DNA from: Candidatus Hydrogenedentota bacterium
GTDB taxonomy: Bacteria; Hydrogenedentota; Hydrogenedentia; Hydrogenedentales; SLHB01
Reading direction: 5' to 3'
Length of the DNA stretch: 22,602 nucleotides
Assembly: GCA_045863295.1 (NCBI GenBank)
Contig: BTWA01000061.1
Coordinates: 1 to 22,602, forward strand
In this document: positions 9,012 through 22,602 of the stretch, in pieces
Layout: the number at the start of each line of letters is the position of its first letter
How positions within the stretch are numbered: the stretch's first letter is position 1
The notes under the pieces: generated by a model
The model's input: the letters and a program-made list of their open reading frames with translations, nothing else
What the model was told of the DNA's origin: nothing
The model's database searches: none
Program-made: the position numbers and the translations under genes

Positions 9012-9023
9012 CTCGACGGAAGC

Positions 9024-9054: not shown

Positions 9055-9095
9055 CGCGCGCCCGCACTTTTCTCCAGTCCTGAAAAAGAAAGGTA

Positions 9096-9148: not shown

Positions 9149-9158
9149 GGAGCAGATC

Positions 9159-9533
9159 ATGCCTAATCTTCCCAATATTTCCGACGCCGAATGGGTCGTT
9201 ATGCGTGTGTTGTGGGATCACTCCCCGCGTACGGCCAACGAGGTAGTCGAAGCGCTTGAACGGAACACCACGTGGAATCCCCGCACCATCAAGACCCTCT
9301 TGAACCGATTGGTGAAGAAGAAGGCATTGGGGTACCAAGCCGATGGCCGAGTGTACCGGTACTACCCGCTTGTTCAGGAAGCCGAATCGGTTCGCGAGGA
9401 AAGCCGGACGTTTTTACAGCGCGTCTATCGCGGCGCGCTCACCCCAATGCTGGCTCACTTTCTCGAGTCCGAAAAGTTGAGCAAGTCCGATATCGATGAA
9501 CTCCGGCGCCTGCTGGATGAGAAAGGATCCTGA
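9159..9533 (+). CDS. blaI: BlaI/MecI/CopY family transcriptional repressor
   Basis: AAGGAG RBS; ISDAEWVVMRVLW, TIKTLLNRLVKKKAL, LSKSDIDELRRLL. The symbol is family-level only. Confidence 0.95.
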   Translation: MPNLPNISDAEWVVMRVLWDHSPRTANEVVEALERNTTWNPRTIKTLLNRLVKKKALGYQADGRVYRYYPLVQEAESVREESRTFLQRVYRGALTPMLAHFLESEKLSKSDIDELRRLLDEKGS

Positions 9534-9535
9534 CC

Positions 9536-12500
9536 ATGGATGCGTGGATGAACAACGCAATCGTCTTCCTGGGATGGGTGATTCCAACGTCAATGCAGGC
9601 AGCGGTGTTGGTGATTCTGGTTCTGTTGGTGCAGGCGTTCTTCAAACGCCAATTGACACCCCGGTGGACGTATGCGCTGTGGTTTGTCGTCGTGGTTCGG
9701 CTGTTGATGCCGACGGCCCCTTCGAGTGGTCTGAGCGTGTTCAACTTATTGCCGCTGCCGGACAATCTTGCCGCTCCGATGCTCCGTATCTTCGAACACT
9801 CCGAAACCATCGCGCAGGGCGAGGAGAACGCGCCAATTGTTTCGCAGGCCACACTTCCCCTCCCCCCCGCCACCCCGGTCGATGATTCAGGCACGATTCT
9901 GAGCCATGACCCGAATTCGGCCGCAATGCGGCAAAGCGCAGCGCAACTTTCACCCCAGGTTTCGAATGTATATATGCTGTGGACACGGGTATGGGAACGT
10001 ATGTTGGGCGTTTGGCTGGCGGGATTGGCAGCCCTGGGCGTACTCATGACCTACAGCAATTTGTCGTTGTTGCGTCGCGTCCGCCGGTGCCGCCCCGTGA
10101 CGGATCCCTCGATACTGAATGTGTTGGAGGATTGCAAGGATCGGCTGCGCGTGACGACGCCGATATCGGTCGTGGCGGTGGATTGGGATCGCGGGCCCGC
10201 GCTTTTCGGTTGGATACGGCCGCGCGTGTTGATACCGCAATCGATTGCCGTCGCCCCCGACCCCGTTGTGTTGCGGCATATCTTTTTACATGAAGTGGCG
10301 CACCACAAACGACATGACATACTCGTCAACTGGCTTACGTCCATCCTGTTGCTGGTCCATTGGTTCAACCCGCTAATCTGGTTTGCCTTTTACCGCATGC
10401 GCACGGATCGTGAGTTGGCATGCGACGCGCTTGCCTTGAGCGCGGCCGAATCCGAAGAAGCCAAAGCATATGGAAACACCATACTCAATCTGCTGGATCG
10501 CACCCGGGCGTTTCATGCGGTTCCGGGCGTTGTGGGGATTGTAGAGGGCAAGTCCGCTCTCAAGAGGAGAATTGCCATGATCGCGCTATTCAAGAAGGGA
10601 TCCTATGGCTGGTCCGTATTGGCATTGGCCGTCTTGGCCGTTCTGGCGTGTGTGGGATTGACCAACGCACGAACGGAAAACGCGCTGAAGAAATCGGAAG
10701 AAGGCGTCCAGGCAAGAATTGGTATCGCGAAAGCCGACGAGCCCAAGCCGGAAGCGCCCGAGTGGGCGAGAGAACTGCTTGATACTCCTGTGAATATCGA
10801 ATTCGAAGACGAGCACATTCAGAATGTGTTGGGATTTGTCGGGGAATATGTCGACGCCAACTTTGTAGTGGACACACGCGCCGTGCGTCCTTCCGACGAA
10901 GTGGCGGATTCCAACAACACCGAAGGCACACGCTTGAGTGGTATCGTCACAAGTATCAAATTGAGTGACGTAACACTTCGCGCCGCGCTTTCTGCACTGT
11001 TGCGGCCGCTTGGGCTGGACTATGCTTTTGAGGAAGGCTATTTCTGGATATCCAGCCCGGAGTTGTTGATGGCTGAAGGGTTTGTAGGTCAAATCGGCAC
11101 CAAGGGGATGGAATCCGGAACGACGGAATCCGGCAAACCGGCTGCCAAAAGATTCGCAAGCGAAAAGTCAGGTCAACAAGCCGGTCCGGGTAGGCCCATG
11201 GATACGATCGAGGAGGGCGGCGTCTCCCCAAAGTTGCGTTCGCAAGATCAGAACCAGCTCAAGCAAATGGGTATCGTGTTCAAGATGTTTGCGAATGAAT
11301 CCGAAGGAGGACGATTTCCAGCCGTGGATTCGAGGCCGGGATTCCTGGTTCCCTCCAAGGACGAGATCTACCCTGAATATGTGTCGGATTTGACCGTGAT
11401 GATCAATCCGTGGAAGAAACTGCCGAAAAAGGGCGAAGCCGACGCCTATTTCTACAGCGACAGCTATTGGTATTTGCCGTATGCGGTGAACACCGAGGCC
11501 ATGGGAATGGAACTGATCAAGGCGTATGAATCGACTGTTGCCAAAGGCGAGCCGCTCCCGGACAGGTGGGCATACAAGGATTCAGATGGAAACGAATTCC
11601 ATTTACACCGTTTAAAGGAAGGCATCGAGCGATTCTTCATCACCGACATCAATGACCCTGCGGCCTCCGCGAAACACCAATCGCAAATCCCAGTCATGTT
11701 CAGCGCTCCGACTCAATTTTCCGATGCTGGCGTGATTGGCGGAAACGTGCTGTTTCTGGATGGACACGTAGAATTTGTGAAGTTTCCGGGCCGCTTTCCG
11801 ATGACCCCTGACTTCCTGCAAGGGCTTGAGAATCTGAAGAAGTACCGCAAGGTCAACGTGTCAAGTCGTTCAGCGGGCGAGATGAGCGAGAAGCAAATGA
11901 TTGCATCGGATCAGAACAATCTCAAGCAGTTGGGACTGGTATTAAAGATGTTTGCCAATGAGCAACGAGGCGAGGTGTATCCAAAGATAGACATGCGGCC
12001 AGGGCATGTCATCATGGATAAAGGATCGATTTATCCCGAGTATTTGAACGATCCGAACGTGCTGCTCAGCCCGTGGTCCGAGCGCCCCGACAGCAAGGAT
12101 ATCGATGCTTTCTTCGACGATACGAGTTACTGGTACATTCCGTATGCGACGCAAGAGGAAGCGGCCGGCCTTGCGTTCGTGAAAACCTATCGAACGACAG
12201 TACTGAAAGGGCAAACATTGCCAGAAGAAGTCGATTTTGATTCGGCGAATGGTCCACAGAAAATGCATTTGTTCCGCGAGGGGATCGAGCGGTATTTCAT
12301 AACCGACATCAATGACCCGAACCAAGCCGCCAAGCAACAGTCCAGTACTCCCGTAATCGTGGGGCGTCCTCGTACGTGGGCCGACGGACGCACTGGGGGC
12401 AACGTATTGTATATGGACGGTCATGTGGAATTTGTTGAGTTTCCGGGCAAGTATCCAATGACATCTGAATTCATTGGCTCTTTGCGTGGATTGGACGGCA

Positions 12501-12964
12501 TCGAGAACGCGAATCATGCGGGAGCGGAAACCGCGGACGATAAAACATCTCGTCTACAAATCCGTTGGGTTGCCAAGGAAGGCGATACTGCCAACGCGGA
12601 GACATTTGAACGGGCAGGCAAAGAAGGCTCGGAAGCGCAGGTTGCCGTCGATGTCGAAGTCTTGATTCGCGACTCCGACGTGGCCGCGGCTGCCGTTAGT
12701 CCGGATACTGCCCCTAATAGCTTTGTTGTGACCGCCATTCTGAACGAGGAAGCAGCCCCGCGCCTCCAGAAAAGCTCACGCGAGAATATTGGGCGGAAAT
12801 TGGCGATTATTTTCGACAACCGCGTCGTCTGCACACCGGCGGTCCGAGCCGAAGTAGGTAACGTTGTCCAGATTACGGGCAATTTCACAAAGGAACAGGC
12901 AGAAGAAATTGCGCATGCATTGTCTGAGACATCAAACGACGAGAAGCCTGCGGAACAAGGTTGA
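9536..12964 (+). CDS. M56 (BlaR1-type) membrane metallopeptidase/sensor fused to STN-like, two DUF1559/H-X9-DG-like and SecD-P1-head-like domains
   Basis: YALWFVVVVRLLMP, GPALFGWIRPRVLIP, HEVAH (10289-10303), HWFNPLIW, DRELACD, LKRRIAMI. Then an STN-like region (~10775-11065), repeats at ~11235-11830 and ~11897-12500, and RENIGRKLAIIFDNRVVCTPAVRAEV..QITGNFT.EQAEEIA. No penicillin-binding domain. Confidence 0.92.
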   Translation: MDAWMNNAIVFLGWVIPTSMQAAVLVILVLLVQAFFKRQLTPRWTYALWFVVVVRLLMPTAPSSGLSVFNLLPLPDNLAAPMLRIFEHSETIAQGEENAPIVSQATLPLPPATPVDDSGTILSHDPNSAAMRQSAAQLSPQVSNVYMLWTRVWERMLGVWLAGLAALGVLMTYSNLSLLRRVRRCRPVTDPSILNVLEDCKDRLRVTTPISVVAVDWDRGPALFGWIRPRVLIPQSIAVAPDPVVLRHIFLHEVAHHKRHDILVNWLTSILLLVHWFNPLIWFAFYRMRTDRELACDALALSAAESEEAKAYGNTILNLLDRTRAFHAVPGVVGIVEGKSALKRRIAMIALFKKGSYGWSVLALAVLAVLACVGLTNARTENALKKSEEGVQARIGIAKADEPKPEAPEWARELLDTPVNIEFEDEHIQNVLGFVGEYVDANFVVDTRAVRPSDEVADSNNTEGTRLSGIVTSIKLSDVTLRAALSALLRPLGLDYAFEEGYFWISSPELLMAEGFVGQIGTKGMESGTTESGKPAAKRFASEKSGQQAGPGRPMDTIEEGGVSPKLRSQDQNQLKQMGIVFKMFANESEGGRFPAVDSRPGFLVPSKDEIYPEYVSDLTVMINPWKKLPKKGEADAYFYSDSYWYLPYAVNTEAMGMELIKAYESTVAKGEPLPDRWAYKDSDGNEFHLHRLKEGIERFFITDINDPAASAKHQSQIPVMFSAPTQFSDAGVIGGNVLFLDGHVEFVKFPGRFPMTPDFLQGLENLKKYRKVNVSSRSAGEMSEKQMIASDQNNLKQLGLVLKMFANEQRGEVYPKIDMRPGHVIMDKGSIYPEYLNDPNVLLSPWSERPDSKDIDAFFDDTSYWYIPYATQEEAAGLAFVKTYRTTVLKGQTLPEEVDFDSANGPQKMHLFREGIERYFITDINDPNQAAKQQSSTPVIVGRPRTWADGRTGGNVLYMDGHVEFVEFPGKYPMTSEFIGSLRGLDGIENANHAGAETADDKTSRLQIRWVAKEGDTANAETFERAGKEGSEAQVAVDVEVLIRDSDVAAAAVSPDTAPNSFVVTAILNEEAAPRLQKSSRENIGRKLAIIFDNRVVCTPAVRAEVGNVVQITGNFTKEQAEEIAHALSETSNDEKPAEQG

Positions 12965-13076
12965 GTCGTAGCGTTAGGCGTCTCGTCAATGATCGAATCA
13001 GAAGGTAATTGCCATTCTCGTCTTGAAAGCGCATTCTTTCTGGTAGCGTCATTGAAGCGGTCAGCAGAGGTGCCCG

Positions 13077-14747
13077 ATGCGTAATATCATCTTGTTGTGT
13101 TTGGGCGTCCTGATTGTGGGGGTGGCCGGGGGTCTGATTTGGAATCTGATGCAGCAGCGGGCTCCCGAACCGCCTCCCGCGCTTTCTGATACGCACCGGG
13201 AACCTACACCGGCGGTACCGCCTGCCGCTACACCTCCCCCCTCACCTCAAGCTACCTCACCCGACCCGCTGCCTATGGCCGAGAGCGTAAGGCCGCTTGC
13301 TCTTCCCTATGTTCTCAAAGGCACCGTCGTGGGACCAGTGTCAATAGCCATGATTGCCAATACGGATACGGGCGCGGAGGGCAAGTATTCCGAGGGTGAG
13401 TTACTGGAGCCGGGCGTCGTGGTAAACGCCATTAATAACCGTCAAGTCGTATTGGAGGCTCGAGGTGAAATCGTCATCCTCGAAATGGGTACGGATTTGA
13501 ATGGGACTTTGCCGGATCTCTCGGGAACGTGGAGGGCTGAGGTTGTCGATGATAATGGCAATGGGGTTGAGTCCGTGGATGTGAGCCTTTCCCAATCCGG
13601 CAATGAACTGACCATCAGCGTTGACAATAGTACCTTCTCGGGGACCCTTGTGGGTTTGCAGGTGCAGTTTAAAGGACTGATAAATGACAACGACGCCACA
13701 ATCACTGGTTCTTTTGACCCACTGGGGACTGTCTACAAAGGCGAAATGCGGTCTTTGGCGCCCGAGGCGGCACAGACGAATGAAATGGTCATGGCTGTCA
13801 CAATGACGCGCCTGACACAAGAACAAATAGTCATAGATGTCCTAAAAGTGAGCCGCGAAAAGGAACTACTGAAAGCGCTGCGCACCGTGTACGCGAGTCT
13901 GAAAGAGTTCGCTGAACAGAACAATGGAATTCCCCCCAGGACACTGGAGGAACTCGCATCCAAGAATCCGGATTTGCTGAATGCGTTAACCCAGGAAGGC
14001 ACACAGGTCACGTATTACAACAACGCCTTCCGGCACGATAAACAGGTGGAGGCCATACGGCGGTCGTTCTATGCCGAAGGCACACCAACGGTGGATCAAT
14101 TGCGGGCCATGGAGGCGGCGTTGACGGAAGTCTGGGGTGGACAGAGTCCATACGCTCGACCCCTAATACGTGTGCAAGACAACAGGACCGGCATTTCCAT
14201 ATCCATGGACGGATTTGGAAGCATCTCGAACGAAAACGATTCTCGGTACGATTCGGCACGCGGCAATGCGGACGAGCCCGTGGTGCGCGCCATGATTGCA
14301 TCGGATCAAAACAACATGAAGCAGTTGGGATTAGTGATCAAGATGTTCATGAACGAGCACGACAACATTATGCCGCCGGGTTGGAATTCGGTCTACCCGG
14401 AGTACCTGACCGATATGAATGTATTGCGTTCTCCTTGGGATGCCCCGGGCGAGCAGTCTTATGAATACCTGTTCCCTACTGCCACGGAGGAGAGCTTGCT
14501 TCAACTGGCGGCTGATTTGGTGAATTCAGGTCAAATCGCATCCGAGGACCTGGGGACAGACAACCCTCAGGCCTTGAACGCGCAGTTGATGAGCAAGGTT
14601 CCAATCCTGTTCAACCAGGCTGAGCTGCCGCGAACCCCCGGCCGGCCGGCGGCACGAAATGTGTTGTTCCTGGACGGCCATGTGGAAGTCGTACCCACGA
14701 GTGAATGGAACGCCCGCATCACGCCCTTTCAACAAAGAGCGGGCTAA
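13077..14747 (+). CDS. Membrane-anchored protein: GspC/PilP-like beta domain plus C-terminal DUF1559/H-X9-DG-like domain
   Basis: N-terminal TM helix; Pro-rich linker; LKGTVVGPVSIAMI...YSEGELLEPGVVVNAINNRQVVLEARGEIVILEM; C-terminal ASDQNNMKQLGLVIKMF...RNVLFLDGHVE. Confidence 0.8.
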   Translation: MRNIILLCLGVLIVGVAGGLIWNLMQQRAPEPPPALSDTHREPTPAVPPAATPPPSPQATSPDPLPMAESVRPLALPYVLKGTVVGPVSIAMIANTDTGAEGKYSEGELLEPGVVVNAINNRQVVLEARGEIVILEMGTDLNGTLPDLSGTWRAEVVDDNGNGVESVDVSLSQSGNELTISVDNSTFSGTLVGLQVQFKGLINDNDATITGSFDPLGTVYKGEMRSLAPEAAQTNEMVMAVTMTRLTQEQIVIDVLKVSREKELLKALRTVYASLKEFAEQNNGIPPRTLEELASKNPDLLNALTQEGTQVTYYNNAFRHDKQVEAIRRSFYAEGTPTVDQLRAMEAALTEVWGGQSPYARPLIRVQDNRTGISISMDGFGSISNENDSRYDSARGNADEPVVRAMIASDQNNMKQLGLVIKMFMNEHDNIMPPGWNSVYPEYLTDMNVLRSPWDAPGEQSYEYLFPTATEESLLQLAADLVNSGQIASEDLGTDNPQALNAQLMSKVPILFNQAELPRTPGRPAARNVLFLDGHVEVVPTSEWNARITPFQQRAG

Positions 14748-14792
14748 CCCACGCTCCTCGCGCTCACGTAGTGGAATCCAGTGCGCATTTTT

Positions 14793-14801
14793 TGCTACGC
14801 T
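14793..14801 (+). promoter_or_regulatory. Possible extended -10 promoter for the tRNA
   Basis: TG-C-TACGCT, 16 nt before the tRNA 5' end. Confidence 0.35.
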
Positions 14802-14817: not shown

Positions 14818-14891
14818 GCCGACGTAGCTCAGTTGGTTAGAGCAGCGGAATCATAATCCGCGTGTCCGGGGTTCGAGTCCCTGCGTCGGCA
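14818..14891 (+). tRNA. tRNA-Met (anticodon CAT, elongator-type; CCA not encoded)
   Basis: Acceptor stem GCCGACG/CGTCGGC plus discriminator A; D arm AGCTCAGTTGGTTAGAGC; anticodon arm GCGGA-ATCATAA-TCCGC; T loop GTTCGAGTC. Paired G1-C72 and no GGG/CCC anticodon stem, so not an initiator. Ile2 is not formally excluded. Confidence 0.95.
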
Positions 14892-14972
14892 CTTCTTTTT
14901 AGCTAACCGTTCAATCACAAGCACTTACGAATAAATACCCATACAAAAACAGCGCGGAATCCACTGAAAATC

Positions 14973-15035
14973 TGGCGCAAAGTGGCGCAAAACGTGGCGC
15001 ACGCATGGCGCACAGCCTCGAAGGTGAGTGGCGCA
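14973..15035 (+). repeat. Five TGGCGCA direct repeats, candidate tyrosine-integrase arm-type binding sites
   Basis: Copies start at 14973, 14983, 14995, 15006 and 15029 (spacings 10, 12, 11, 23), 80-145 bp from the tRNA 3' end. Confidence 0.7.
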
Positions 15036-15036
15036 C

Positions 15037-15080
15037 AAATAAAAATCCCTGTCTGGCGCGTGAAATTTGACCAGACAGGG
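15037..15080 (-). terminator. Probable intrinsic terminator of the minus-strand phage operon
   Basis: CCCTGTCTGG (15047-15056) / CCAGACAGGG (15071-15080), followed on the minus strand by ATTTTTATTT. A second hairpin, CCGATGC/GCATCGG, is at 15085-15109. Confidence 0.7.
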
Positions 15081-15116
15081 GCCACCGATGCGCCGGGCAG
15101 AGGCATCGGGTAGGGG

Positions 15117-16301
15117 TTATTCGGTGAGCACGGCGCGGATGCGCAAGGCCCAATATGCGGGGTATTCCATCGACACCCGCGAATCCTTGTACCAACTACC
15201 GGGCGCAGCCCCCGAATCGTATTCGAACGCCTCGTCTGCGCCGTAGCCCGCGCCAGGGTATTCGTTAGTCACGGCCGCCACGGATTCGCCGTCCGCCCAC
15301 TCAATGAGCAATTCGGCGAGGTCATTCACAAGCGCGATCTCGACTGCAGTCAAATCCTCCGTATCCGGGATTTGCGAGGGAAGCCATTCGTACAGTTCCT
15401 CTGGCGCGTAGGCACCGCCAGGGTAAATGAGGTCCGCCGTGGTCCAGTGCGCCGGGTCTGAGATGTAAACCCGTAGCGCGTGCAAGATTGTCGCCGCGTT
15501 CGGGTGCGTGGTCGAAAAGCCAATTCCCGCATTGCGAGCGTATGTGGCCGTCTTGGTCAAACCAAGCACGCCATCGGGAAGAAACAGCACAGCCGAGTCA
15601 ATCGTTGCGGCATACTCCGCGCCGGCCCATGTATGCCGCTGATAGGTGGTGTGGTATTCGTGGGTCCATTGCGCCGTCCCGTAGAGCGGTGGAGTCCCTG
15701 GGTCCGCCACTACCGCGCCCGTTTGCATAACAGGCGATCCGAACGTATCGAATGCGCCGGACGCACCGACAATCGTGTTGTCGAAATCGGGCGTCCAGTT
15801 CGCTGGGTCCGGTGATGAGTGCTTATCAATCGCCTGTGTGCCGCCCGCAATACCGCCTGCCGTTCGCGGCTTGCGCGTGGGCAACAATTCGATCTGTACG
15901 TGCGTCAACGCCTCGATGATCGTTCGCATATCCGTGACAAACCCGTGCCAGTTGATCGGCTCGTCTAGCCCGAATGATTGTGAGAGATCAAGATCACCTC
16001 CAGCGCGACCGGGGCCTGTATATTCAGTCCAATCAGGATCAACAAACACTCCAGAGTCAACGCAACTTTTTAGGATCGTCTGGATGTCGTCCAGCATCCT
16101 CTTGACGCCATTCAAGCCGAGCGTTGTCACGCCTATTGGCGTATCGCTCACATGCGCAGCCCATCGCGCCTCGACGATTGCAATAAATCCGCTGTCCAAT
16201 TGTGCGACCTGATACCGTTCCTTGGCTTTCAGGAACAACTCGTACCAGAAATCATTGTCCATGAAATGAACGGTGTCTGTGTCGGTCCAAGTGATAGGCA
16301 T
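15117..16301 (-). CDS. Hypothetical acidic phage protein, likely virion/tail-associated (394 aa)
   Basis: Start MPITW at 16301 overlaps the upstream stop (TAATG). Rich in Asp, Thr, Gly and aromatics. Last gene before the terminator. Confidence 0.7.
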   Translation of the reverse strand: MPITWTDTDTVHFMDNDFWYELFLKAKERYQVAQLDSGFIAIVEARWAAHVSDTPIGVTTLGLNGVKRMLDDIQTILKSCVDSGVFVDPDWTEYTGPGRAGGDLDLSQSFGLDEPINWHGFVTDMRTIIEALTHVQIELLPTRKPRTAGGIAGGTQAIDKHSSPDPANWTPDFDNTIVGASGAFDTFGSPVMQTGAVVADPGTPPLYGTAQWTHEYHTTYQRHTWAGAEYAATIDSAVLFLPDGVLGLTKTATYARNAGIGFSTTHPNAATILHALRVYISDPAHWTTADLIYPGGAYAPEELYEWLPSQIPDTEDLTAVEIALVNDLAELLIEWADGESVAAVTNEYPGAGYGADEAFEYDSGAAPGSWYKDSRVSMEYPAYWALRIRAVLTE

Positions 16302-16588
16302 TACGGATCTATGTCCTGACCGGGTATACCGGTCGCAGTCGTTGGCTTTACGATAGGCCGCCAAAACGTGCTGTCTTGGTTTGCAAAATACGCCTGCCCG
16401 TTTGGAGCGCTGATTATTGTTGGCTTTACAGGACCTTCCGGGAATACGTCTGTGTAGTGCGCGATCGCGAACCCGCCACCGCCACCGCCAATCTGGACAG
16501 GCGGATTACCGACACGCCGCCGCAGATCGCGGATCTCAGATTGTAAGATGCGCAACTCGCCAAGCAGCATCCGCTCTGTTTCGGTCAT
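16301..16588 (-). CDS. Small phage protein with short coiled coil and Gly linker (95 aa)
   Basis: ATG at 16588 in ATGA overlap with the upstream stop; LRILQSEIRDLRRRVG...GGGGGG. Confidence 0.7.
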   Translation of the reverse strand: MTETERMLLGELRILQSEIRDLRRRVGNPPVQIGGGGGGFAIAHYTDVFPEGPVKPTIISAPNGQAYFANQDSTFWRPIVKPTTATGIPGQDIDP

Positions 16589-18537
16589 TGGGCAAACCCC
16601 TCGAAAGAGAGTTCTTCCCACCCGGTCGTAATCGTCGTGGTCATCGCCGTAAAATCGAATTCCTTTGTCGTGATCAGCGTGCCCACGTTCACGGAATGCC
16701 ACACGCCAATAGCGCCGCGCAACAACATGCCCGGCTCGTATTCGGGCGTAATGTATTTGAATTGGATCGATGCGGTGGCGCGGGCCTGTGAGTAGAATTG
16801 AGCGGCCAGTAGCGCGACCTTAATCAACTGCTGCCTGTCATCGCGGCTCTGCTGGTATTCGCTGGGGGAAAGAACAAGTCCTGCAACATCAACATCGAGT
16901 ACGGTATTAGGTAGCACGATCCACATTTCTGCGTCGGGTAAATTGATAATCTTTTCCCGTTGCCATGTTCCGTCCGGCGCATAGCGCAGCCGCAGGAATA
17001 CTTGCAGGTGCCGATCCGATTCGATCATGGCTGTAACCCGCAACGTCGCGTAGTCTACAGATGGCTCAGTGTTCGTCGGATACTCGGACTCGTATTGGTT
17101 CAACCCGATCACGTGGTTTGGATTCCCGCGAACGAACACCGCCAATTCGTTTTCCGCCGGAATGACGTGGCAGGAATTGAACCCCTCTCCAATATCACCA
17201 AGTCGATGCACAGGCATAAACCCAAGCGTCGGTACGTCGATCACGGCAAACATGCGCCGGAAGTCAGGGGCAACGTCGGTGTCTGCAGCGTCTTCGAGGA
17301 TCGGGATATGCCGCGAGAATCGCTTGTCTTTTCGGTAAAGCGGTGCCCGTAAATCTTCGCGAAAGTTTCCAAGATCATCGACTGCAGGGAGTGCGTTGTA
17401 TCCGCCGAGCGTGCCGTCCCAATCGTCGGGTACGCGGAATCGCGAAAAGACATGAGACAAAGCCTCTGATTGCCTGGCGCGGTCGTTTACGGCAGGGTCC
17501 GCCGAGTGTGCCCCGTCCTCATAAGCGATCCCCTCGGCAAGTGTCCATGCAGGGTCAAGCGTGCGCGGGTTATCAGATACCGACCACGTGCCGCAAATGC
17601 TGATGGGCCCACCCATAACCCGCACCTGGTCGTATTGCTCAATGGCCGAGTGATTGAACGACGGGTCCACGTCAAGCCGCCCGTCTGCGTAGAGCACAAT
17701 CTGATCGGGATTCGCCGGAATCGTTGTGCCCCCAAACGAAACAGAGTTAGCCAAATCGGAATAGACGTAGATGTAAAGCGGCGCGTTGTCTTGGAACGGG
17801 ACCACGAGCTTCCAACCCAGCCCATTGCGCCGATTGATCAGGCGATCCAAGGCTTGTTTGACGCTCATTCCGCGCAGGTTGTGTTCTTCAAAGATCGTAT
17901 CAAGCGCGTCGGTTGCCCCCACTATTTCAATGGTCAGATCCGACGGCAGAAAACGCGCCACGAGATACGTTGCAATGTCGAGATTGCTCCACAGATCCCC
18001 GGTGTCTTCAAACCACGGAATGCCGTCGCCGTCCTCTCCGTAGTTGCCATGACCGAGCAACCCGAATGCGTCTTGCCCATTGAATTTGATCGGCCTGTCA
18101 ACAACACCCGCCGATGTATGTGATGTGCTTATGTGCGCACGGTCGAATAAGTGCTCGACGCCAAACGCTGTGAATTGCTGACGGCCAGACAGGTACGTGC
18201 TCTGACCGTGAATGTTACATTGTTCCAATTGCACGACACCGGACCAGACTTGCCATGTGTGGAATGCGTCGTGCGCCACGACGGCGACATAGGCATCCTG
18301 GACAATCAGCGGCAGGTAGATATCGCGATAGTTCCGATCTTCGCGCTTGATGTCGCCATAGTCGAATTTAAGAATGGCCTCGGGCACGGCCGGCGAAACG
18401 GATTGACGCGCCTTTTCGCAATAGGCGTACGGTACCCACTGGTACAGATCGGACCAGCGCCGCTTGAACCACACGGATTGCTGTGTCGCGGGCCGAAGCG
18501 TGCCGGGTGCCTGCCCATATATAGCGACGGAAGACAT
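16585..18537 (-). CDS. Putative phage tail hub/baseplate-type protein (650 aa)
   Basis: Long ORF after an AAGGA RBS. Segments VWSGVV, SVKQALDRLINRRNGLGWKL and EQYDQVRVMGG resemble tail-hub architecture. Function inferred from context. Confidence 0.6.
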   Translation of the reverse strand: MSSVAIYGQAPGTLRPATQQSVWFKRRWSDLYQWVPYAYCEKARQSVSPAVPEAILKFDYGDIKREDRNYRDIYLPLIVQDAYVAVVAHDAFHTWQVWSGVVQLEQCNIHGQSTYLSGRQQFTAFGVEHLFDRAHISTSHTSAGVVDRPIKFNGQDAFGLLGHGNYGEDGDGIPWFEDTGDLWSNLDIATYLVARFLPSDLTIEIVGATDALDTIFEEHNLRGMSVKQALDRLINRRNGLGWKLVVPFQDNAPLYIYVYSDLANSVSFGGTTIPANPDQIVLYADGRLDVDPSFNHSAIEQYDQVRVMGGPISICGTWSVSDNPRTLDPAWTLAEGIAYEDGAHSADPAVNDRARQSEALSHVFSRFRVPDDWDGTLGGYNALPAVDDLGNFREDLRAPLYRKDKRFSRHIPILEDAADTDVAPDFRRMFAVIDVPTLGFMPVHRLGDIGEGFNSCHVIPAENELAVFVRGNPNHVIGLNQYESEYPTNTEPSVDYATLRVTAMIESDRHLQVFLRLRYAPDGTWQREKIINLPDAEMWIVLPNTVLDVDVAGLVLSPSEYQQSRDDRQQLIKVALLAAQFYSQARATASIQFKYITPEYEPGMLLRGAIGVWHSVNVGTLITTKEFDFTAMTTTITTGWEELSFEGFAQ

Positions 18538-18557
18538 TTAAACGCTATTCCTTACAG

Positions 18558-18983
18558 TCATCGTCCAGTTTGCGCATCCGTCGATGCCTTGGCCTTCTCC
18601 GGGTCGACCTTCTTCATGGCTTTGTTCTGCGCTTTCTGCAGCGTCTTCATTTCGGCGTTCGTCGTGCGCAGGTTTGTCAACGCCTCGGAAATAGTCTGTC
18701 GCCACTTTTCTGCGCTGGCCTCGGCAGCGGCACGTTCTTCGGCCGTCCTTGCGGCCTCGGATGCCCTCTCCGCCTCTTTCAAGGCGAGACGACCCTCTTT
18801 GTACTGCAACGTGTATTGGACCGTTGCTTGGGCCAGCAGCGTCGTTTCGGACGCAATGTCTCCGATCTGATCGGTCTGCAAATCGATCCGGGTGATGTAA
18901 CCGCGTTCATCGCGCACAATCTGACAGCCGACACTCACTAGGCAGACGATGACGGTCAAAGCCGTCAAGAATTCGCGTTTCAT
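18558..18983 (-). CDS. Phage lipoprotein with coiled coil (spanin-like or lysogenic-conversion candidate)
   Basis: AGGAG RBS; MKREFLTALTVIVCLVSVG-C signal peptide II; Ala/Glu/Lys-rich helical C-terminal half. Confidence 0.75.
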   Translation of the reverse strand: MKREFLTALTVIVCLVSVGCQIVRDERGYITRIDLQTDQIGDIASETTLLAQATVQYTLQYKEGRLALKEAERASEAARTAEERAAAEASAEKWRQTISEALTNLRTTNAEMKTLQKAQNKAMKKVDPEKAKASTDAQTGR

Positions 18984-19055
18984 GATTCTTCTCCTGTTAA
19001 CGGTTTCTTTAATCCCTTCCGCAGGATTAAAATTTTCGGCCGGTTTCTTTAAAGT

Positions 19056-19089
19056 GCCGGACCGGTCAGACTGCTAGACCCGGTCCGGC
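19056..19089. terminator. GC-rich hairpin downstream of the Acb2/Tad1-like gene
   Basis: GCCGGACCGG (19056-19065) / CCGGTCCGGC (19080-19089), followed by ACTTTAAAG on the minus strand. Confidence 0.5.
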
Positions 19090-19134
19090 CTCCGATGCGA
19101 CGACAGGCCGCACCAGAAAATCGATCAAGTACAC

Positions 19135-19362
19135 CTACTCGTTTCTGGCGATTGCCGCGTTTGCCCACATGTTGGCTTGCTCCAAGTTGGTCAGAGCAAC
19201 CGACAACTCGCGAGACTCCGGGCAATTGGTGATGAGCAAATGAGCGAGCTTGCCAAACTCGTCACGAATTCGCGTATACCGTTCGGGTTGGCCGTCTTTT
19301 GGCGCGTGGTACTTGTATGCTTTCGAGTTCTGATCAAGTTGACGCTCGCTCGGTGTATACAT
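19135..19362 (-). CDS. Acb2/Tad1-hairpin-like small protein (75 aa), candidate immune-signal sponge
   Basis: AAAGGAG RBS and ATG at 19362; YKYHAPKDGQPERYTRIR...CPESRELSVALTNLEQANMWANAAIARNE resembles the recalled SRE..A.T.LE.A.MW hairpin motif. Confidence 0.75.
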   Translation of the reverse strand: MYTPSERQLDQNSKAYKYHAPKDGQPERYTRIRDEFGKLAHLLITNCPESRELSVALTNLEQANMWANAAIARNE

Positions 19363-19372
19363 GATTCTCCTT

Positions 19373-19642
19373 TCAGGCCGGAACGGCCTCGCTGTTTCGT
19401 ATCCAATAGTGCGATTTGCAAGGTATCTGGTAATTTCCAATGGACGGCATGAGCGTGACGCCATTGGCATCTTCTGTAAGCGTCCATCCGCCTTTGTCGA
19501 TCGGTGTCACCACTTGATGGCCACAACCGCATGCGCAAAGATGGATTGCCACCTCGTATTCCCGAGACACGTACAATGTCCCTACGGCTAATTGCTCTGG
19601 GACTACCTTGACGATCTCGACTTTTAGGCGGACTCTGTGCAT
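19373..19642 (-). CDS. DUF6527 family protein (Cys/His metal-binding)
   Basis: GTLYVS..Y.VAIHLCACGCGHQVVTP...W.L...VTLMPSIGNYQIPCKSHYWIR. AAGGA RBS before ATG 19642 (alternative starts up to 19666). Confidence 0.8.
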   Translation of the reverse strand: MHRVRLKVEIVKVVPEQLAVGTLYVSREYEVAIHLCACGCGHQVVTPIDKGGWTLTEDANGVTLMPSIGNYQIPCKSHYWIRNSEAVPA

Positions 19643-19688
19643 CAGCATTCCTTCGCTCGGCATCATTTCGTTGACGCCAACAAAATGA

Positions 19689-20024
19689 TCAGGCAGCGGG
19701 CTTCGGCGGTTCCGTGCTGGTAGTCACGGGAACGACGTCTGCCACTTCCACGGTCTTGGTCCGAGTCTTACCTGCGTCCAGTGCCGCATGAATGCCGCCC
19801 GTGATGACCGTCACGCCAAGCACGACGGCCGCGAGACTGTCTGCTACCTCCGCAAACGCCTTCGTGACAGCGGCGATCTCATCGGGTGTCATTTTGAGAA
19901 GCCCGAATGCGACCACGCCGGAAATGACCGCGCCAATGGACCCGCCCGCGCTGGCAGCCGCTTTCAGGCCCTTGTAGATGTTCTTCGCGATACTGTTTTT
20001 GATCGGCACTTCCACGGTTTGCAT
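19689..20024 (-). CDS. Putative holin (two hydrophobic segments); start uncertain
   Basis: GGAGG before ATG 20024; hydrophobic GGSIGAVISGVVAFGLL and LAAVVLGVTVITGGIHAAL; charged tail; near the endolysin. The frame stays open upstream to 20387. Confidence 0.6.
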   Translation of the reverse strand: MQTVEVPIKNSIAKNIYKGLKAAASAGGSIGAVISGVVAFGLLKMTPDEIAAVTKAFAEVADSLAAVVLGVTVITGGIHAALDAGKTRTKTVEVADVVPVTTSTEPPKPAA

Positions 20025-20107
20025 GATTCGCTTTGCCTCCTCATAGTCGCGCTGGACGGCGACCTTTGCTTTCCATCCATGACGGACCTTCGATATGAAG
20101 CCCGTCT

Positions 20108-20350
20108 TTATCTCTCTCCCTTGGCCAGCCCGATCAGGTCCAGCAGGAACCGCCACAGACTGAAGGGCATGTCCCTGTCCGTCCGATTCTGGTTTGCTTC
20201 CAGGAACGTATCGGACATTTCCTCCATTGGCTCCTGCGTCATTTCGACGTAGTTCACCGGCACCTTGCTGGACGGCTGGCCGAACGTCGTTTTCCATGGC
20301 GCGTTTTTCTTCCTGGCGCCGCCGCCGCGCTTCCCGGATTTCTTTGTCAC
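20108..20350 (-). CDS. Hypothetical phage protein (80 aa), basic N-terminus and amphipathic C-terminus
   Basis: GGAGG before GTG 20350. Third codon positions are GC-rich in this frame over ~20290-20108, unlike the overlapping frame. Confidence 0.55.
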   Translation of the reverse strand: MTKKSGKRGGGARKKNAPWKTTFGQPSSKVPVNYVEMTQEPMEEMSDTFLEANQNRTDRDMPFSLWRFLLDLIGLAKGER

Positions 20351-20373
20351 GGTAGTTCTTGCCTCCGCTCATG

Positions 20374-20580
20374 TCACGAGTCTCCACTGCCCTGGAATAA
20401 GCCCATCAAGAAAATGTCAACGTCTTTGGGCTTGGGCGGAATGTATTCGACGGCCTCCGATGTGAAATGGCCACAGTGAGCGCATTCCAACGTATCCGGG
20501 TCCGCTTCCTCGGGAAACACGGCCACTACACGATGCCCACAGGCGCGACATTCACATTTGGATGCAAACCATGCGCTCAT
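20374..20580 (-). CDS. Small zinc-ribbon protein (68 aa)
   Basis: CRAC...CAHC; ATGA overlap with the upstream gene. Confidence 0.7.
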   Translation of the reverse strand: MSAWFASKCECRACGHRVVAVFPEEADPDTLECAHCGHFTSEAVEYIPPKPKDVDIFLMGLFQGSGDS

Positions 20581-20723
20581 TTGCGTAGCTCCGAGAGTCT
20601 TACGCCCGTATTGCAGTTCGGGCACTTCACCGCTTCGCGCAGGGTCGAAACAGAAAACGTCTGACCGCAATCGCATTGCACGAGCACGGAGCGCGGGCCG
20701 TGGTGCGGGTCGATGATCTTCAT
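20577..20723 (-). CDS. Small zinc-ribbon protein (48 aa)
   Basis: CDC...CPNC; GGAGG RBS and ATGA overlap with the endolysin stop. Confidence 0.7.
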   Translation of the reverse strand: MKIIDPHHGPRSVLVQCDCGQTFSVSTLREAVKCPNCNTGVRLSELRK

Positions 20724-21292
20724 GCCGCCGCCTCCATTCGCGCATACAGCGCAAACCACCGCGCGCGGGCGAGCACGTCCTCGCTGTAATTCCCGTGCGC
20801 CGTGTAGTGGTCCGGGTTCTTTTTGGCGTTCAATGCCCGCTTGACGTTGCCTGGGCCGCAGTTGTAACCCGCAATCGCGCACCGCATGATGCGGGGAACA
20901 GAGAGAGACGGGAATTGCCGACGAAGGTATTTGAACGACGCGAGCAGAACCGATGCGCCGTACAGGATATTCGCCTCGGGGTCCTGCCAGTTGCCGTTGC
21001 GCGCAAACTCGTGAGCCGCGTAGTCGATTTGCATCAGACCACGCCCCCATCCCAAGCCATCGGCAGGCATGTCGCCTTTGCGTGCAACCCAGTCGCCCGT
21101 GCCGGCCGGGCCATTCGGTCGATACAAACGGGTACGGCAGACGCCCCAGTTCGATTCACGCGAGCCAATGGCAAAAAAGATACCTGGCGCAACCCGGGCC
21201 ACTTTCGCGCCCGCCAGAATGTACGGCATGTATTGGCGTGCAGCCTCAAAGTCGGCATTCATGGCTTTATGGTTTTTCGGATATTCCATCAC
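20720..21292 (-). CDS. Endolysin, goose-type lysozyme/SLT (GH23) fold
   Basis: AIGSRESNWG (catalytic Glu), GRGLMQID, AGYNCGPGNV, DHYTAHGNYSEDVLARARWF. Confidence 0.92.
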   Translation of the reverse strand: MMEYPKNHKAMNADFEAARQYMPYILAGAKVARVAPGIFFAIGSRESNWGVCRTRLYRPNGPAGTGDWVARKGDMPADGLGWGRGLMQIDYAAHEFARNGNWQDPEANILYGASVLLASFKYLRRQFPSLSVPRIMRCAIAGYNCGPGNVKRALNAKKNPDHYTAHGNYSEDVLARARWFALYARMEAAA

Positions 21293-21540
21293 GTATTGCC
21301 ATCCATCTTGTTCTCGATCCGCTGCAACGTCTGTTTCATGTACGTCTGGTCAGTCTGAATCCGTTCCAGCGTCCGGCCTATCCCATTGACCTCGCCCTGG
21401 ACCGCATCCACCCGGACGTCAATCTTCTCGATCTGGCCCGCCGTCGCATTGACGTAGAACGTACCTAGTAACCCCACCGCCGACAGGGCAATGGTCACTA
21501 AAACCCCAACCACTGCCGTGATGATCTTTGCCGTGCTCAT
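21289..21540 (-). CDS. Single-TM plus coiled-coil protein (holin/XhlA-like or inner-spanin candidate), 83 aa
   Basis: GGAGG RBS and ATG 21540; TM IITAVVGVLVTIALSAVGLLGTFYV; heptad tail LERIQ...LQRIENKMD; stop overlaps the endolysin start. Confidence 0.75.
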   Translation of the reverse strand: MSTAKIITAVVGVLVTIALSAVGLLGTFYVNATAGQIEKIDVRVDAVQGEVNGIGRTLERIQTDQTYMKQTLQRIENKMDGNT

Positions 21541-21574
21541 TACGGTTGCCTCCAAGGGTTCGCGATAAGGCCAA

Positions 21575-22602
21575 TCAAAACATAACTCCACCACCACCCG
21601 GGGTCACACTGGCTGCACACCCCACAGTGCCTGTGTATTCGATCTCAATTTTCGGCCTCCGGCTCGTCGTCACGTTCCCGTACCCCGCGATTTCCATCGT
21701 GCAATCCCCGGAGTCTTTTTCCATGAAGACGTTCCCACTACCCGAACCGGCTTTAATCAAACTGCTCCCCGACGAATCCAACGCAACCGTAAAAATCCCC
21801 GGGTCACAGGTATCGCTATAACTCCCGCCCCCATCGTAGATATACTCCATCAACGACGTACCGTCGTGAATATCCCAATCCAACACCGTCCCCTCGAGAG
21901 TGCTCACGCCAATCGCCAACGTATCCGTCGCAGTCCCCAGGCTCAACCCATTGATGGTCGTGCCAGTGCTCCCCTCATTCCACGACACATCCGCCACATG
22001 CGACGTCAGTATCCAATTGTCTTCCAAGCCGCTCGTAAACGTGCAATCCTCATCCAACGTCACATACAACGTCGCATTGCTGATCGACCCGTTAATCCCC
22101 GGCATATCCACCTTGAACACCACACGGTCAAACTCACCACTCCCCTGCGTATACGCCATCGAATCAAACGACTGCTGCGCCTCGGTAGGATCGATATAGA
22201 CTGGATAGGTAGCCTCCCTCAGCCATTCCGCATCGACAACCGCCGTATACGATTTGCCGTCCCATTCGTAACGCCCCTGCGTCCGTCGCTTCCGCGGTAC
22301 ACTCGAATCCACAACCAACACCGGCGAGAAATCAAACACCGGCCGGCGTGCATCATCGAACACCCGAAACTTCCCATCCCGCTCCTGCAGCGACAAATGC
22401 GCCGCAACCACATACCCATTCACAATCCGCAACTCGCGCGCATCCTTCGGCACTTCGAATCCCACTGGGAGAATCAAATCTTCCTTATGCCCACCCTCGA
22501 ACACCGTTCGATGCAACTCCACTCCACCAGGAAACAGACCGCGAATTACCACACACTCCGCCGATACCTGCTCCGCCTTCGCCTCCAACGGCGTCAAATC
22601 GG
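21575..22602 (-). CDS. C-terminal part of a phage tail/adhesin-like protein with DNRLRE(CBM96)-like beta domain (5' end outside the window)
   Basis: Frame is open to the window edge; AEWLREATYPVYIDPT, then DRVVFKVDMPGINGSISNATLYV, SWNEGS and RPKIEIEYT. Confidence 0.65.
   Translation of the reverse strand, partial: DLTPLEAKAEQVSAECVVIRGLFPGGVELHRTVFEGGHKEDLILPVGFEVPKDARELRIVNGYVVAAHLSLQERDGKFRVFDDARRPVFDFSPVLVVDSSVPRKRRTQGRYEWDGKSYTAVVDAEWLREATYPVYIDPTEAQQSFDSMAYTQGSGEFDRVVFKVDMPGINGSISNATLYVTLDEDCTFTSGLEDNWILTSHVADVSWNEGSTGTTINGLSLGTATDTLAIGVSTLEGTVLDWDIHDGTSLMEYIYDGGGSYSDTCDPGIFTVALDSSGSSLIKAGSGSGNVFMEKDSGDCTMEIAGYGNVTTSRRPKIEIEYTGTVGCAASVTPGGGGVMF

Follow-up and report, generated by a model that had tools for sequence, protein, structure and literature searches.

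A prophage insert carrying a short-form BubE-type peptidase gene and an Acb2-family sponge gene, two counter-defence candidates of a Hydrogenedentota phage

Animal viruses use deubiquitinases and deISGylases against ubiquitin-like tagging. Like Cap3, these are peptidases that reverse ubiquitin-like conjugation and so damp immunity, and a phage-encoded BubE would share that idea. The analogy stops at the chemistry: Cap3 is a JAB metalloprotease and the viral enzymes are cysteine proteases, with folds and catalysis unrelated to the Ser/His zinc-finger beta-sandwich of BubE. Phages also carry morons, small accessory inserts in late or lysis regions.

BubE is the deconjugating peptidase of Bub (formerly 6E) operons, which also encode the ubiquitin-like protein BubA and E1/E2 proteins (BubBD, or BubAB/BubCD). 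As described in a preprint (10.1101/2024.11.21.623953), it combines a Ser/His dyad with a C4 zinc finger and takes BubA conjugates off; in the Citrobacter enzyme the zinc cysteines are C57, C59, C61 and C99 and the dyad is S92/H102. The same source describes an N- or C-terminal, hydrophobic-rich extension as conserved across BubE, and reports very weak activity in vitro and a loss of solubility when the extension is taken away. According to its authors, protection of E. coli from phage has so far been demonstrated for no Bub operon. A sequence-only reading of the locus studied here had assigned DUF6527, the BubE domain, to Bil/Bub-type operons; this is right for Bub, but Bil operons have a JAB peptidase in place of BubE (10.1101/2024.11.21.623953).

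The second family concerned is that of the Acb2 and Tad1 sponges. An Arg/Thr pair forms the cyclic-trinucleotide pocket in both (R67/T74 in PaMx33 Acb2, R90/T97 in CbTad1), and in Tad1 it also holds the hexamer together. A Tyr/Lys pair, Y11/K26 in PaMx33, forms the cyclic-dinucleotide pocket.

An insert among the lysis genes of a prophage at tRNA-Met

The locus lies in a 22,602-nt contig of a Candidatus Hydrogenedentota bacterium (BTWA01000061.1, the window). One end of a prophage occupies the window as far as the contig end (Table 1), with every gene on the minus strand. The last 19 nt of the tRNA-Met gene at its border recur exactly on another contig of the same genome (C29, 42691-42709), beside an integrase gene (42778-44064), and C29 encodes terminase, portal, protease, major head and tail-fibre proteins as far as its own end. 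Together with the endolysin gene, these features bear out the earlier placement of the gene pair in a prophage late/lysis region. The pair does not lie among early genes, an observation that runs against the reading we favor below.

Table 1. Features of the window around the gene pair
Feature	Position	Strand	Basis or remark
tRNA-Met gene, prophage attachment site	14818..14892	+	ARAGORN
One end of prophage, stopped by contig end	14893..22602	-	SLT endolysin, virion, tail-fibre-like and lysis genes
141-aa lipoprotein-like gene, possible spanin (candidate)	18558..18983	-	ORF; signal peptide and lipobox-like VSVGC
Conserved leader of lipoprotein gene	18984..19056	-	Backbone sequence, common to C15 prophage
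Two tandem GC-rich hairpins, terminator-like	19040..19135	-	After Acb2-type gene
~0.6-kb insert (moron): DUF6527 gene, Acb2-type gene, two GC-rich hairpins	19057..19662	-	Alignment with C15 prophage
Acb2-family sponge gene, 75 aa	19135..19362	-	PF24729, phrog_1454
Orphan short-form DUF6527 (BubE-type) Ser/His peptidase gene	19373..19642	-	89 aa from M9; PF20137
Palindrome, 12-bp stem, end of upstream gene	19662..19689	.	Backbone, conserved in C15 prophage
232-aa protein, two C-terminal hydrophobic segments, holin-like (putative)	19689..20387	-	Upstream of pair
48-aa zinc-ribbon gene	20577..20723	-	Conserved in C15 prophage; weak TerY_C metal-binding match
SLT-type lytic transglycosylase (endolysin)	20720..21292	-	PF01464, E 1.2e-7

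The neighbors had been called lipoprotein and holin-like. The downstream gene does encode a signal peptide and a lipobox-like motif, with no family above threshold in family profile searches; the upstream protein is holin-like in its hydrophobic segments but has no match in the same searches. A homologue of the latter, 35-39% identical, is found in a paralogous prophage of the same genome (contig C15). Because a search with the 232-aa query through another 132 genomes of the order came up empty, this paralogue is the sole sister prophage for comparison. Two other neighboring proteins, of 650 and 340 aa, had no match among isolated phages.

A look at related prophages for absence of the pair had been proposed, and the C15 prophage, aligned at the same site, lacks exactly the ~0.6-kb block that carries both genes. 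The paralogous contig departs from the window sequence at 19056 and passes directly to the palindrome; the adjoining leader region is 91% identical at the DNA level over 82 nt. The two genes thus constitute a single indel relative to the sister prophage, and because the paralogue is without exactly this block we regard the pair as a moron-type insert. Like morons, it is a small insert flanked by late genes that sister prophages conserve, and it brings its own terminal hairpins; unlike morons, it has no promoter of its own that the scan detected, and its cargo resembles counter-defence rather than lysogen fitness functions. The promoter scan found no sigma-70-like promoter for the pair, and promoter types of this host may fall outside such a scan.

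Two structures had been thought to bound the pair. The upstream palindrome is real, with 12-nt arms (19662-19673 and 19678-19689) that are 92% complementary and a folding energy of -13.3 kcal/mol (z -3.15, equalled by 1 of 200 shuffles); it overlaps with the upstream gene's stop codon and with the first two ATGs of the DUF6527 frame. The C15 prophage has the same palindrome, which is therefore part of the phage backbone rather than of the pair. The downstream hairpin turned out to be two hairpins in tandem, very stable (-43.1 kcal/mol, z -3.69, with none of 200 shuffles as stable) but with no T-run (U-tract) behind them and no call from the terminator scan.

Within the insert, the two small genes are open frames on the minus strand separated, as first noticed, by 10 nt (19363-19372, between the DUF6527 stop and the ATG of the Acb2-type gene), and each does have its own ribosome-binding site. 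For the Acb2-type gene this is AAGGAG, 4 nt before the ATG and inside the spacer. The DUF6527 frame extends from its first ATG over 19373-19666 (97 aa); its likely start is M9 at 19642, giving 89 aa, as suggested by AAGGA 6 nt ahead of that ATG, by an 89-aa database cluster representative and by the start point of homologues. Residue numbers below follow the 97-aa frame.

An ordinary member of the Acb2 sponge family

The families proposed from sequence for both proteins were confirmed by an HMM check above curated cut-offs: PF20137 for the DUF6527 protein (75.8 bits, E 2.4e-21, cut-off 23.6) and PF24729 for the sponge (72.6 bits, E 2.9e-20, cut-off 27), which also matches phrog_1454 (E 1.3e-24). 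Searched as a profile against the PDB, the sponge matched Acb2 homolog 43 (E 8.8e-6) and, at about E 0.008, Tad1, over an SRE..ALT..E motif. Its model (pLDDT 89) has three helices, two long antiparallel ones and one at the N terminus. The structural assignment by Foldseek that had been proposed for both proteins gave nothing usable. With the sponge model there was no PDB match at E <= 0.001 (T4 Vs.4 ranked 18 and Tad1 23), and VIA-align wide returned generic helical bundles only; the DUF6527 model had no match in the PDB, which holds no solved relative.

With the described Acb2 sponges (PaMx33 and JBD67 Acb2, T4 Vs.4, Acb2_43 of PDB 9PTQ, and homologues #4 and #44) the window protein has in common the PF24729 hairpin, small size, phage origin and an SRE..ALT..E..MW motif. 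By eye, it shares about 32 of 60 aligned residues with homologue #4 as given in Hadary et al. 2025. Its C terminus carries an "AIARNE" string that occurs in 533 sequences of the homologue list of that study and in none of the 84 proteins listed there as tested. Acb2_43 binds 3'cADPR through N-terminal strands, unlike the window protein, whose model has no such strands. The hairpin motif with its Arg/Thr pair is likewise common to Tad1 (PDB 7UAV, 8KBE-8KBH), but Tad1 chains are 123-138 aa long, with an additional segment that builds the gcADPR pocket, against 75 aa here.

R51 and T58 recur without exception in 49 relatives and align with the cA3-binding, hexamer-forming Arg/Thr of Tad1 (SRE..ALT), in an alignment of 20 residues only (window residues 49-68); the match to R67/T74 of Acb2 is by spacing only. 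The invariant Y18 and R33 stand 15 residues apart, as do Y11 and K26 of PaMx33, a likeness of spacing that was not matched by an alignment to the PaMx33 protein. Taken alone, the gene adds one more ordinary member to a large sponge family that is already known. Its role in counter-defence is well grounded. Its product would assemble into a homo-oligomer and sequester the cyclic oligonucleotide alarm signals of CBASS, most likely cyclic trinucleotides via R51/T58 and possibly dinucleotides too. The host itself has a type II CBASS comprising a cyclase, E1-E2 (Cap2), JAB (Cap3) and a SAVED-nuclease effector. Nothing points to Thoeris, which had been suggested as a further target: the extra domain of Tad1 is absent, and homologues #4 and #44, the nearest among the tested proteins, blocked CBASS only (Hadary et al. 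2025, Table S2).

An orphan form of BubE without the extension

In the DUF6527 protein, alignments show all four zinc ligands (C44, C46, C48, C83) and the Ser/His dyad (S75/H86) to be kept, the dyad being invariant in one of these alignments. The AlphaFold2 model (pLDDT 91.2) is a compact beta-sandwich of eight strands. The Pfam domain, C4 cysteines and dyad are thus shared with BubE of type I and II Bub operons (Citrobacter sp. RHBSTW-00271, E. coli ZDHYS365), as is, in the model, the eight-strand fold. Unlike BubE, the window protein has no hydrophobic or basic extension, with only 11 residues after the catalytic His; its gene is a solitary one in a phage, and BubA, E1 and E2 are absent from its surroundings; and it would act on the conjugates of others rather than regulate its own operon. 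No PADLOC model fits either protein of the insert or a genuine long BubE.

This difference separates two forms across genomes. Among 66 unique orphan sequences, the CxCxC motif is kept in all, Ser in 63 and His in 64, and the tail beyond the His is 11 residues in 57 and 25 at most; in operon copies it measures 39-81 residues (24/24). Genomic loci show the long form directly behind DUF6791+ThiF (BubBD) in 21 of 34 cases, most of them also with Multi_ubiq (BubA), whereas eight short-form loci lie among phage genes with none of DUF6791, ThiF or Multi_ubiq. In IMG/VR, where a single DUF6527 protein retrieved nothing and an alignment query was needed to find loci, BubBD occurs only at four long-form loci, one of them with BubBD at its cut start, and three of the four also have BubA; the other 73 of 77 loci, all short-form, have neither within 4 kb. 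A search of cluster representatives returned 2570 clusters at E <= 0.001; long forms predominate among them, since part of the extension is built into the profile, so that the search does not measure the share of short forms. The short form is also found in three isolated phages, including large ones of 249-322 kb, and its distribution is patchy and accessory-like. By these sequence features the window protein belongs to the extension-less orphan form of BubE.

The host genome holds one DUF6527 gene in all. It lacks a Bub operon, a point against our favored reading: DUF6791 has no match there, is present in 3 of 133 genomes of the order, and neither BubA nor BubBD occurs in the window.

The DUF6527 protein (residues 9-97) was modelled together with the final beta-grasp domain of BubA, and the predicted complex had a median ipSAE of 0.76 (runs 0.79, 0.76 and 0.68; best of three controls 0.01). 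Of 157 solved complexes 116 attained that mark, as did 2 of 215 mismatched pairs. Between runs, at least 93% of contacts agree, with a partner pLDDT of at least 86. The interface joins BubA residues 157 and 159-166 to phage residues 74-81 and 86, and the BubA C-terminal tail comes to lie at Ser75/His86. The BubA partner came from another genome of the host's family and the alignments were self-made, so these values describe a modelled fit and not binding. We infer that the short form may cut BubA conjugates: the phage-made 89-aa protein would bind the beta-grasp domain of host BubA, place its tail at the dyad, and either cut BubA from its targets or destroy its conjugatable end, with the outcome that Bub tagging is cancelled. 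Because BubE is weak in vitro and insoluble once its extension is removed (10.1101/2024.11.21.623953), an enzyme that lacks the extension is not guaranteed to be functional.

Adjacency of the two genes and competing explanations

The sequence-only reading treated the pair as a cassette. Locally this holds, in that both genes lie in one ~0.6-kb indel, but across phages the pair is not a conserved cassette: the genes are adjacent in 1 of 77 DUF6527-anchored viral loci and 1 of 78 sponge-anchored viral records. A DUF6527 gene next to an Acb2/Tad1-hairpin gene was found in three unrelated phage backbones, with components from different subfamilies (24% versus 55% identity) and a third hairpin protein that has no detectable similarity; the adjacency arose independently in the three. 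One viral record has a weak DUF6527-like match, below the cut-off, 1.2 kb from a sponge gene; the matched protein is a different zinc-binding one.

The reading we favor, with a probability of roughly 0.55, is that the insert is a moron of a temperate phage integrated at tRNA-Met and bears two single-gene counter-defence candidates, a CBASS sponge and a BubA deconjugase, that probably work independently of each other. The counter-defence module first proposed thus fares well for the sponge; for the DUF6527 gene such a role is plausible only, since on the preprint's account no Bub operon has been shown to protect against phage and a countermeasure to Bub is left with no proven target. Alternatively, the sponge could be a real anti-CBASS gene that shares a permissive slot with a small phage protease or zinc-binding protein unrelated to host immunity, its role phage-internal or other and only its ancestry shared with BubE. 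We consider this possible but somewhat unlikely. It would suit a host without Bub and a Bub system that is not a proven defence, and it would suit the surroundings of the orphan genes: 48-49 lineages have no recurrent partner gene, their nearest genes are mixed (lysis in 6 lineages, virion or packaging in 7, DNA modification in 5, the rest mostly unannotated), and one jumbo phage has the gene directly ahead of its prohead protease gene. It is harder to reconcile with a modelled BubA-binding surface and tail placement far above controls, with catalytic and zinc residues kept across distant phages, with the three backbones in which the gene adjoins hairpin genes, and with a patchy distribution unlike that of a core morphogenesis gene.

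A co-selected, two-pronged module directed at one pathway seems quite unlikely to us. Here the peptidase would reverse a ubiquitin-like priming step, for example the CD-NTase conjugates made by Cap2 in type II CBASS (mimicking Cap3) or a signalling-coupled Bub step, and the sponge would mop up the remaining signal. The type II CBASS of the host fits, as do the gain or loss of both genes as a single block and an adjacency reached in three backbones with different subfamilies; against this, adjacency is rare, the modelled contacts fall on BubA's beta-grasp body, a part absent from a CD-NTase, and clustering of anti-defence genes would explain adjacency with no common target. Least probable by far is that the DUF6527 gene is a remnant or cargo of a prophage-borne Bub system and serves defence. 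Viral or proviral Bub operons do exist, at the four IMG/VR loci with long-form BubE, but the window protein is of the short form, which has no BubA or BubBD beside it in the window or in 73 of 73 viral loci and which also occurs in the isolated phages of 249-322 kb.

In the favored reading the two genes work separately; that the extension-less phage clade of BubE is a set of "viral deconjugases" whose repeated adjacency to sponges reflects a real coupling of tagging and signalling, and hence a two-pronged module, is doubtful. A widespread, catalytically intact orphan BubE borne by phages would in itself count as the first viral answer to ubiquitin-like tagging in bacteria, and as strong indirect evidence that Bub, a ubiquitin-like pathway already characterised biochemically, is antiviral. 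Phages with and without the orphan gene offer a handle for finding conditions in which Bub restricts infection, and work with the short, soluble-looking form may prove simpler than with BubE itself.

Position of the gene pair in the prophage

The 22.6-kb window is a complete contig of a draft genome that totals 6.3 Mb, and its minus strand carries every gene from 14893 to the contig end. The final 19 nt of the tRNA-Met gene are repeated on another contig of the genome (C29:42691-42709), adjoining an integrase; onward from there, C29 encodes a large terminase, portal, head protease, major head protein and tail-fibre gene, and then ends. Read inward from its end, the window encodes a tail-fibre-like protein (cut by the end), a one-TM protein and an SLT endolysin (PF01464). 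Next come a zinc ribbon of 48 aa and a two-TM protein of 232 aa, followed by the DUF6527/sponge pair; a lipoprotein-like gene and late genes of larger size come last. This junction and the phage gene content of the two contigs confirm the prophage late region proposed from the sequence alone.

Coordinates of features in the window and in related loci of the same genome
Feature	Location	Strand	Remarks
Chromosomal genes	1-14800		sulfatase, BlaI/BlaR1-type pair, FAD oxidoreductase
BlaI-type repressor, then BlaR1 M56 peptidase	9096-12964		peptidase of 1142 aa with C-terminal SecDF P1-head subdomain; unusual sensor architecture
tRNA-Met gene	14818-14892
Sponge gene	19135-19362	minus	open frame, 75 aa
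DUF6527 frame	19373-19666	minus	open frame, 97 aa counted from first ATG
Palindrome	19662-19689		C15 prophage copy at L117:7600-7650
Prophage stretch compared, window	14893-22602		SLT transglycosylase
Prophage stretch compared, C15	L117:4174-12983		peptidase-type endolysin (phrog_894)
Host CBASS	L204:2833-7834	minus	complete

As first described, the two small genes are genuine frames, each with its own ribosome-binding site. The DUF6527 gene most likely starts at M9 (19642), giving 89 aa, because AAGGA lies 6 nt ahead of that ATG, the database cluster representative is 89 aa long and homologues start there. The sponge gene begins 10 nt past the DUF6527 stop, with AAGGAG 4 nt ahead of its ATG. 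The bounding palindrome is present (12-bp stem, -13.3 kcal/mol, z -3.15), but the single downstream hairpin of the sequence-only reading is in fact a tandem pair of GC-rich hairpins (-43.1 kcal/mol, z -3.69, 0/200 shuffles), after which no U-tract was found and the terminator scan made no call.

A second, related prophage on contig C15 of the same genome provided a comparison: its 497-aa gene is 79% identical to a 340-aa fragment in the window, and it carries a copy of the 232-aa gene (35-39% identity). In alignment A4, both prophages share as backbone the palindrome after the 232-aa gene and the lipoprotein gene's leader (91% identical across 82 nt). C15 lacks a counterpart to a window stretch of about 603 nt (about 19057-19662), in which lie the GC hairpins and the genes for the DUF6527 protein and the sponge. 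The pair is thus absent from a related prophage at the same site, a check suggested at the outset. A paralogue contig in the probable source run departs from the window sequence at 19056, straight into the palindrome. Because of the A4 gap and this contig joining the flanks, we conclude that the pair is a single indel, a moron-type insert. No further sister prophages could be compared, since the 232-aa anchor gene (window copy as query) was not found among the 132 other genomes of the order.

The lysis cassettes of the two prophages are mosaic, with the zinc-ribbon gene, two-TM protein and lipoprotein leader kept between them and the endolysins differing in type. The palindrome, directly 3' of the stop of the 232-aa gene, is kept in both (z about -3.1); terminator, attenuator and operator are candidate roles. 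The contig break at 22602 is probably due to the repeat shared by C15 and the window.

An orphan, extension-less form of the BubE peptidase

Profile searches bore out both suspected family assignments, PF20137 for the DUF6527 protein (E 2.4e-21) and PF24729 for the sponge (E 2.9e-20; also phrog_1454). In the preprint on Bub (formerly 6E) operons, DUF6527 is BubE, a serine protease that has a zinc finger and a Ser/His dyad, strips conjugates of the ubiquitin-like BubA and bears a conserved, hydrophobic-rich N- or C-terminal extension; no BubE structure is solved, and Bil operons carry a JAB peptidase, not DUF6527 (10.1101/2024.11.21.623953). Of the proposed Bil/Bub link, the Bub half therefore stands and the Bil half falls. 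By alignment, the window protein retains C44, C46, C48, C83 and the dyad S75/H86 (97-aa frame); its model (pLDDT 91.2) has eight strands, and neither sequence nor fold search found a solved relative. The family as a whole comprises 2570 representative clusters (E <= 0.001).

We surveyed 77 IMG/VR loci (81/115 pattern matches confirmed) and 34 loci in species-representative genomes. At 21 genomic loci, a 115-160-aa form lies directly downstream of a DUF6791+ThiF protein of about 392 aa (BubBD), in most cases with Multi_ubiq (BubA) and often with a divergent HTH and Peptidase_M78 pair. Another eight loci carry an 84-142-aa form with no C-terminal tail and none of the Bub genes. Seven of these have phage-gene neighbours: holin and SLT endolysin (L084), integrase and a Mom-like gene (L085), podophage fibre and lipase (L088), a tubulin-like gene (L108), RNA ligase (L111) and YopX (L112 and L113). 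The eighth, L114, is without an annotated neighbour, and its protein is identical to that of provirus locus L021. Five loci were left unclassed: L097 and L109 are truncated where the locus begins, L092 adjoins a type I restriction system, L106 comes from a tiny contig and L116 is a spurious short match. Among the IMG/VR loci, home-made profiles matched BubBD in the four long-form ones alone (L014, L015, L022, L027), and BubA in the last three, L014 being cut at its start; with these profiles, neither was found within 4 kb at the other 73 of 77. The short form is also present in three isolated phages, Burkholderia phage FLC9, Erwinia phage pEa_SNUABM_29 and Dulem virus 40.

The sequence set comprised 66 unique orphans (window included), 24 operon copies and 4 unclear proteins; L033, L074, L115, L116 and three 70-aa truncated frames were left out. 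Past the catalytic His, the tail is 11 residues in 57/66 orphans (maximum 25), compared with 39-81 in all 24 operon copies. Of the 66 orphans, all retain CxCxC, 64 the His, 63 the Ser and 48 the fourth Cys. A quick tree on 86 core columns, from which the fusions L077 and L082 were excluded, has poor resolution (54/86 inner branches open), but the operon/orphan label requires 2-5 changes on it versus a shuffled mean of 21-24. The nearest row to the window protein is L084 (56% identity), which likewise directly follows holin and SLT endolysin. The window peptidase belongs to an orphan BubE form that is phage-borne, lacks the extension and is catalytically intact by its residues, and of which we found no description in the searchable literature (DUF6527/BubE, phage deubiquitinase, anti-defense).

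The survey also revealed variants. A PYHAHY-type variant replaces the fourth Cys in 17/66 orphans (motif ..G(E)xPYHAHY..; IMG/VR L038, L044, L045, L048, L051, L052, L056, L058, L060, L064, L067, L070-L073 and L076, and genomic L111), a subclade whose zinc site may be rebuilt with histidine. DUF6527 is fused to unrelated N-terminal domains on two viral contigs (L077:3614-4237, 207 aa; L082:661-1647, 328 aa), and the representative search returned a 543-aa protein with a C-terminal DUF6527 and one of 1777 aa that matches in 23 short stretches. The orphan gene lies directly 5' of a Peptidase_S80 prohead protease gene in pEa_SNUABM_29 (L004, 2486-3577), and a gene of about 213-240 aa, of unknown family, precedes it there and in FLC9. 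Among the genomic Bub loci (L083-L110), many type II operons come with a divergent HTH and Peptidase_M78 (IrrE-like) gene or pair and, as would be expected in defence islands, adjoin further defence or mobile genes (type I R-M, AbiEii, Schlafen-like, integrases, a TraG-like gene).

As BubA partner for a co-folding run we took the final beta-grasp domain (residues 86-166) of the protein encoded by a type II Bub operon (L122) whose genome belongs to the same family as the host; the window protein entered as residues 9-97. Median ipSAE was 0.76 (runs 0.79, 0.76, 0.68; best control 0.01), a mark that 116/157 solved complexes and 2/215 mismatched pairs attained; these counts are approximate, as the alignments were our own. 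Runs had at least 93% of contacts in common, with partner pLDDT of at least 86. Within the modelled interface are the BubA C-terminal tail (157, 159-166) and, from the dyad region of the phage protein, residues 74-81 and 86; the preprint predicted this binding mode for BubE (10.1101/2024.11.21.623953). Recall of a known structure by the model is unlikely because no such complex is solved. The model supports a fit of the orphan peptidase to BubA, as distinct from binding. The type II BubA proteins (L122, L083, L089-L115; A5) end in an invariant Ser in 15/15 cases (...T-D/N/G/K-K/Q/R/E-S), differing from the Gly usual for ubiquitin-like proteins, and the BubA gene end overlaps the BubBD start.

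The sponge and the host CBASS

A near-length search returned 839 sponge relatives, and 258/50,697 isolated phage records contain relatives, most of these records being Mycobacterium, Paenibacillus and Gordonia phages. A profile built from 49 relatives matches Acb2 homolog 43 (9PTQ, E 8.8e-6) and, at about E 0.008, Tad1 chains across the SRE..ALT..E..MW motif. R51 and T58, invariant in these relatives, align with the Tad1 Arg/Thr (CbTad1 R90/T97); R90A and T97A abolish cA3 binding by CbTad1, and the same residues hold its hexamer together. In PaMx33 Acb2 the residues used are R67/T74, likewise spaced 7 residues apart. With its 75 aa, the protein is too small for a Tad1.

The preprint of Hadary et al. 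(10.1101/2025.08.24.671296) reports 533 'AIARNE'-containing sequences among Acb2 homologues and the motif in none of 84 tested proteins. The closest tested proteins, chosen by eye, are #4 (67 aa), which blocked 3'3'-cGAMP CBASS alone and was negative on all three Thoeris types, and #44 (70 aa), which blocked 3'3'-cUA CBASS, was positive by plaque assay for 3'3'-cGAMP CBASS, where 96-well transformation had failed, and was negative on Thoeris type II (transformation failed for types I and IV). The host encodes a type II CBASS on contig C16, with a SAVED-nuclease effector (510 aa), cyclase (420 aa), E1-E2 Cap2-like protein (612 aa) and JAB Cap3-like protein (327 aa). Given these relatives, the length and the host system, anti-CBASS sequestration is the best reading of the sponge, which is an ordinary addition to a known family. 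Beside the host CBASS is a gene for a 1203-aa SNF2 helicase, which matches HmaA/DrmD models.

Pairing of the two genes across phages

The proposed cassette holds locally, as one indel relative to C15, and mostly fails across phages, where adjacency is rare. A PF24729 gene shares the contig in 8/77 DUF6527 records (7 above cut-off), four of them one group of gut-type phages of about 38 kb with the gene 8-9 kb away, and is adjacent only in L040. Of 80 loci from the subfamily of the window sponge, one (L168) has an adjoining DUF6527 gene, and a whole-record search gave one match above cut-off in 78 distinct sponge records (L143 left out). No recurrent neighbour family was found among 48-49 orphan DUF6527 lineages.

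The adjacencies differ in setting. DUF6527 precedes the sponge in the lysis region of the window and, with a 1-nt gap, ahead of the neck terminator in L168, whose peptidase and sponge are 24% and 55% identical to those of the window; in L040 the order is reversed, between Mu portal and Mu F genes, and the 161-aa hairpin protein has no detectable similarity to the window sponge. By these comparisons, the three adjacencies are independent. Counter-defence genes tend to cluster. Repeated juxtaposition with a proven anti-defence family fits this tendency and so speaks for a putative counter-defence role of the orphan peptidase.

The preprint reports no Bub operon that had protected E. coli from phage (10.1101/2024.11.21.623953), and Bub is not an established defence. 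Bub is absent from the host and was found in 3/133 genomes of its order. We infer all functional steps for the pair; the original observation is upheld, and its counter-defence interpretation in part only. The same two-gene junction occurs outside the probable source sample, because a 229-nt contig from an estuary metagenome of another study (run X2) spans it (window 19271-19499) with only 2 differences.
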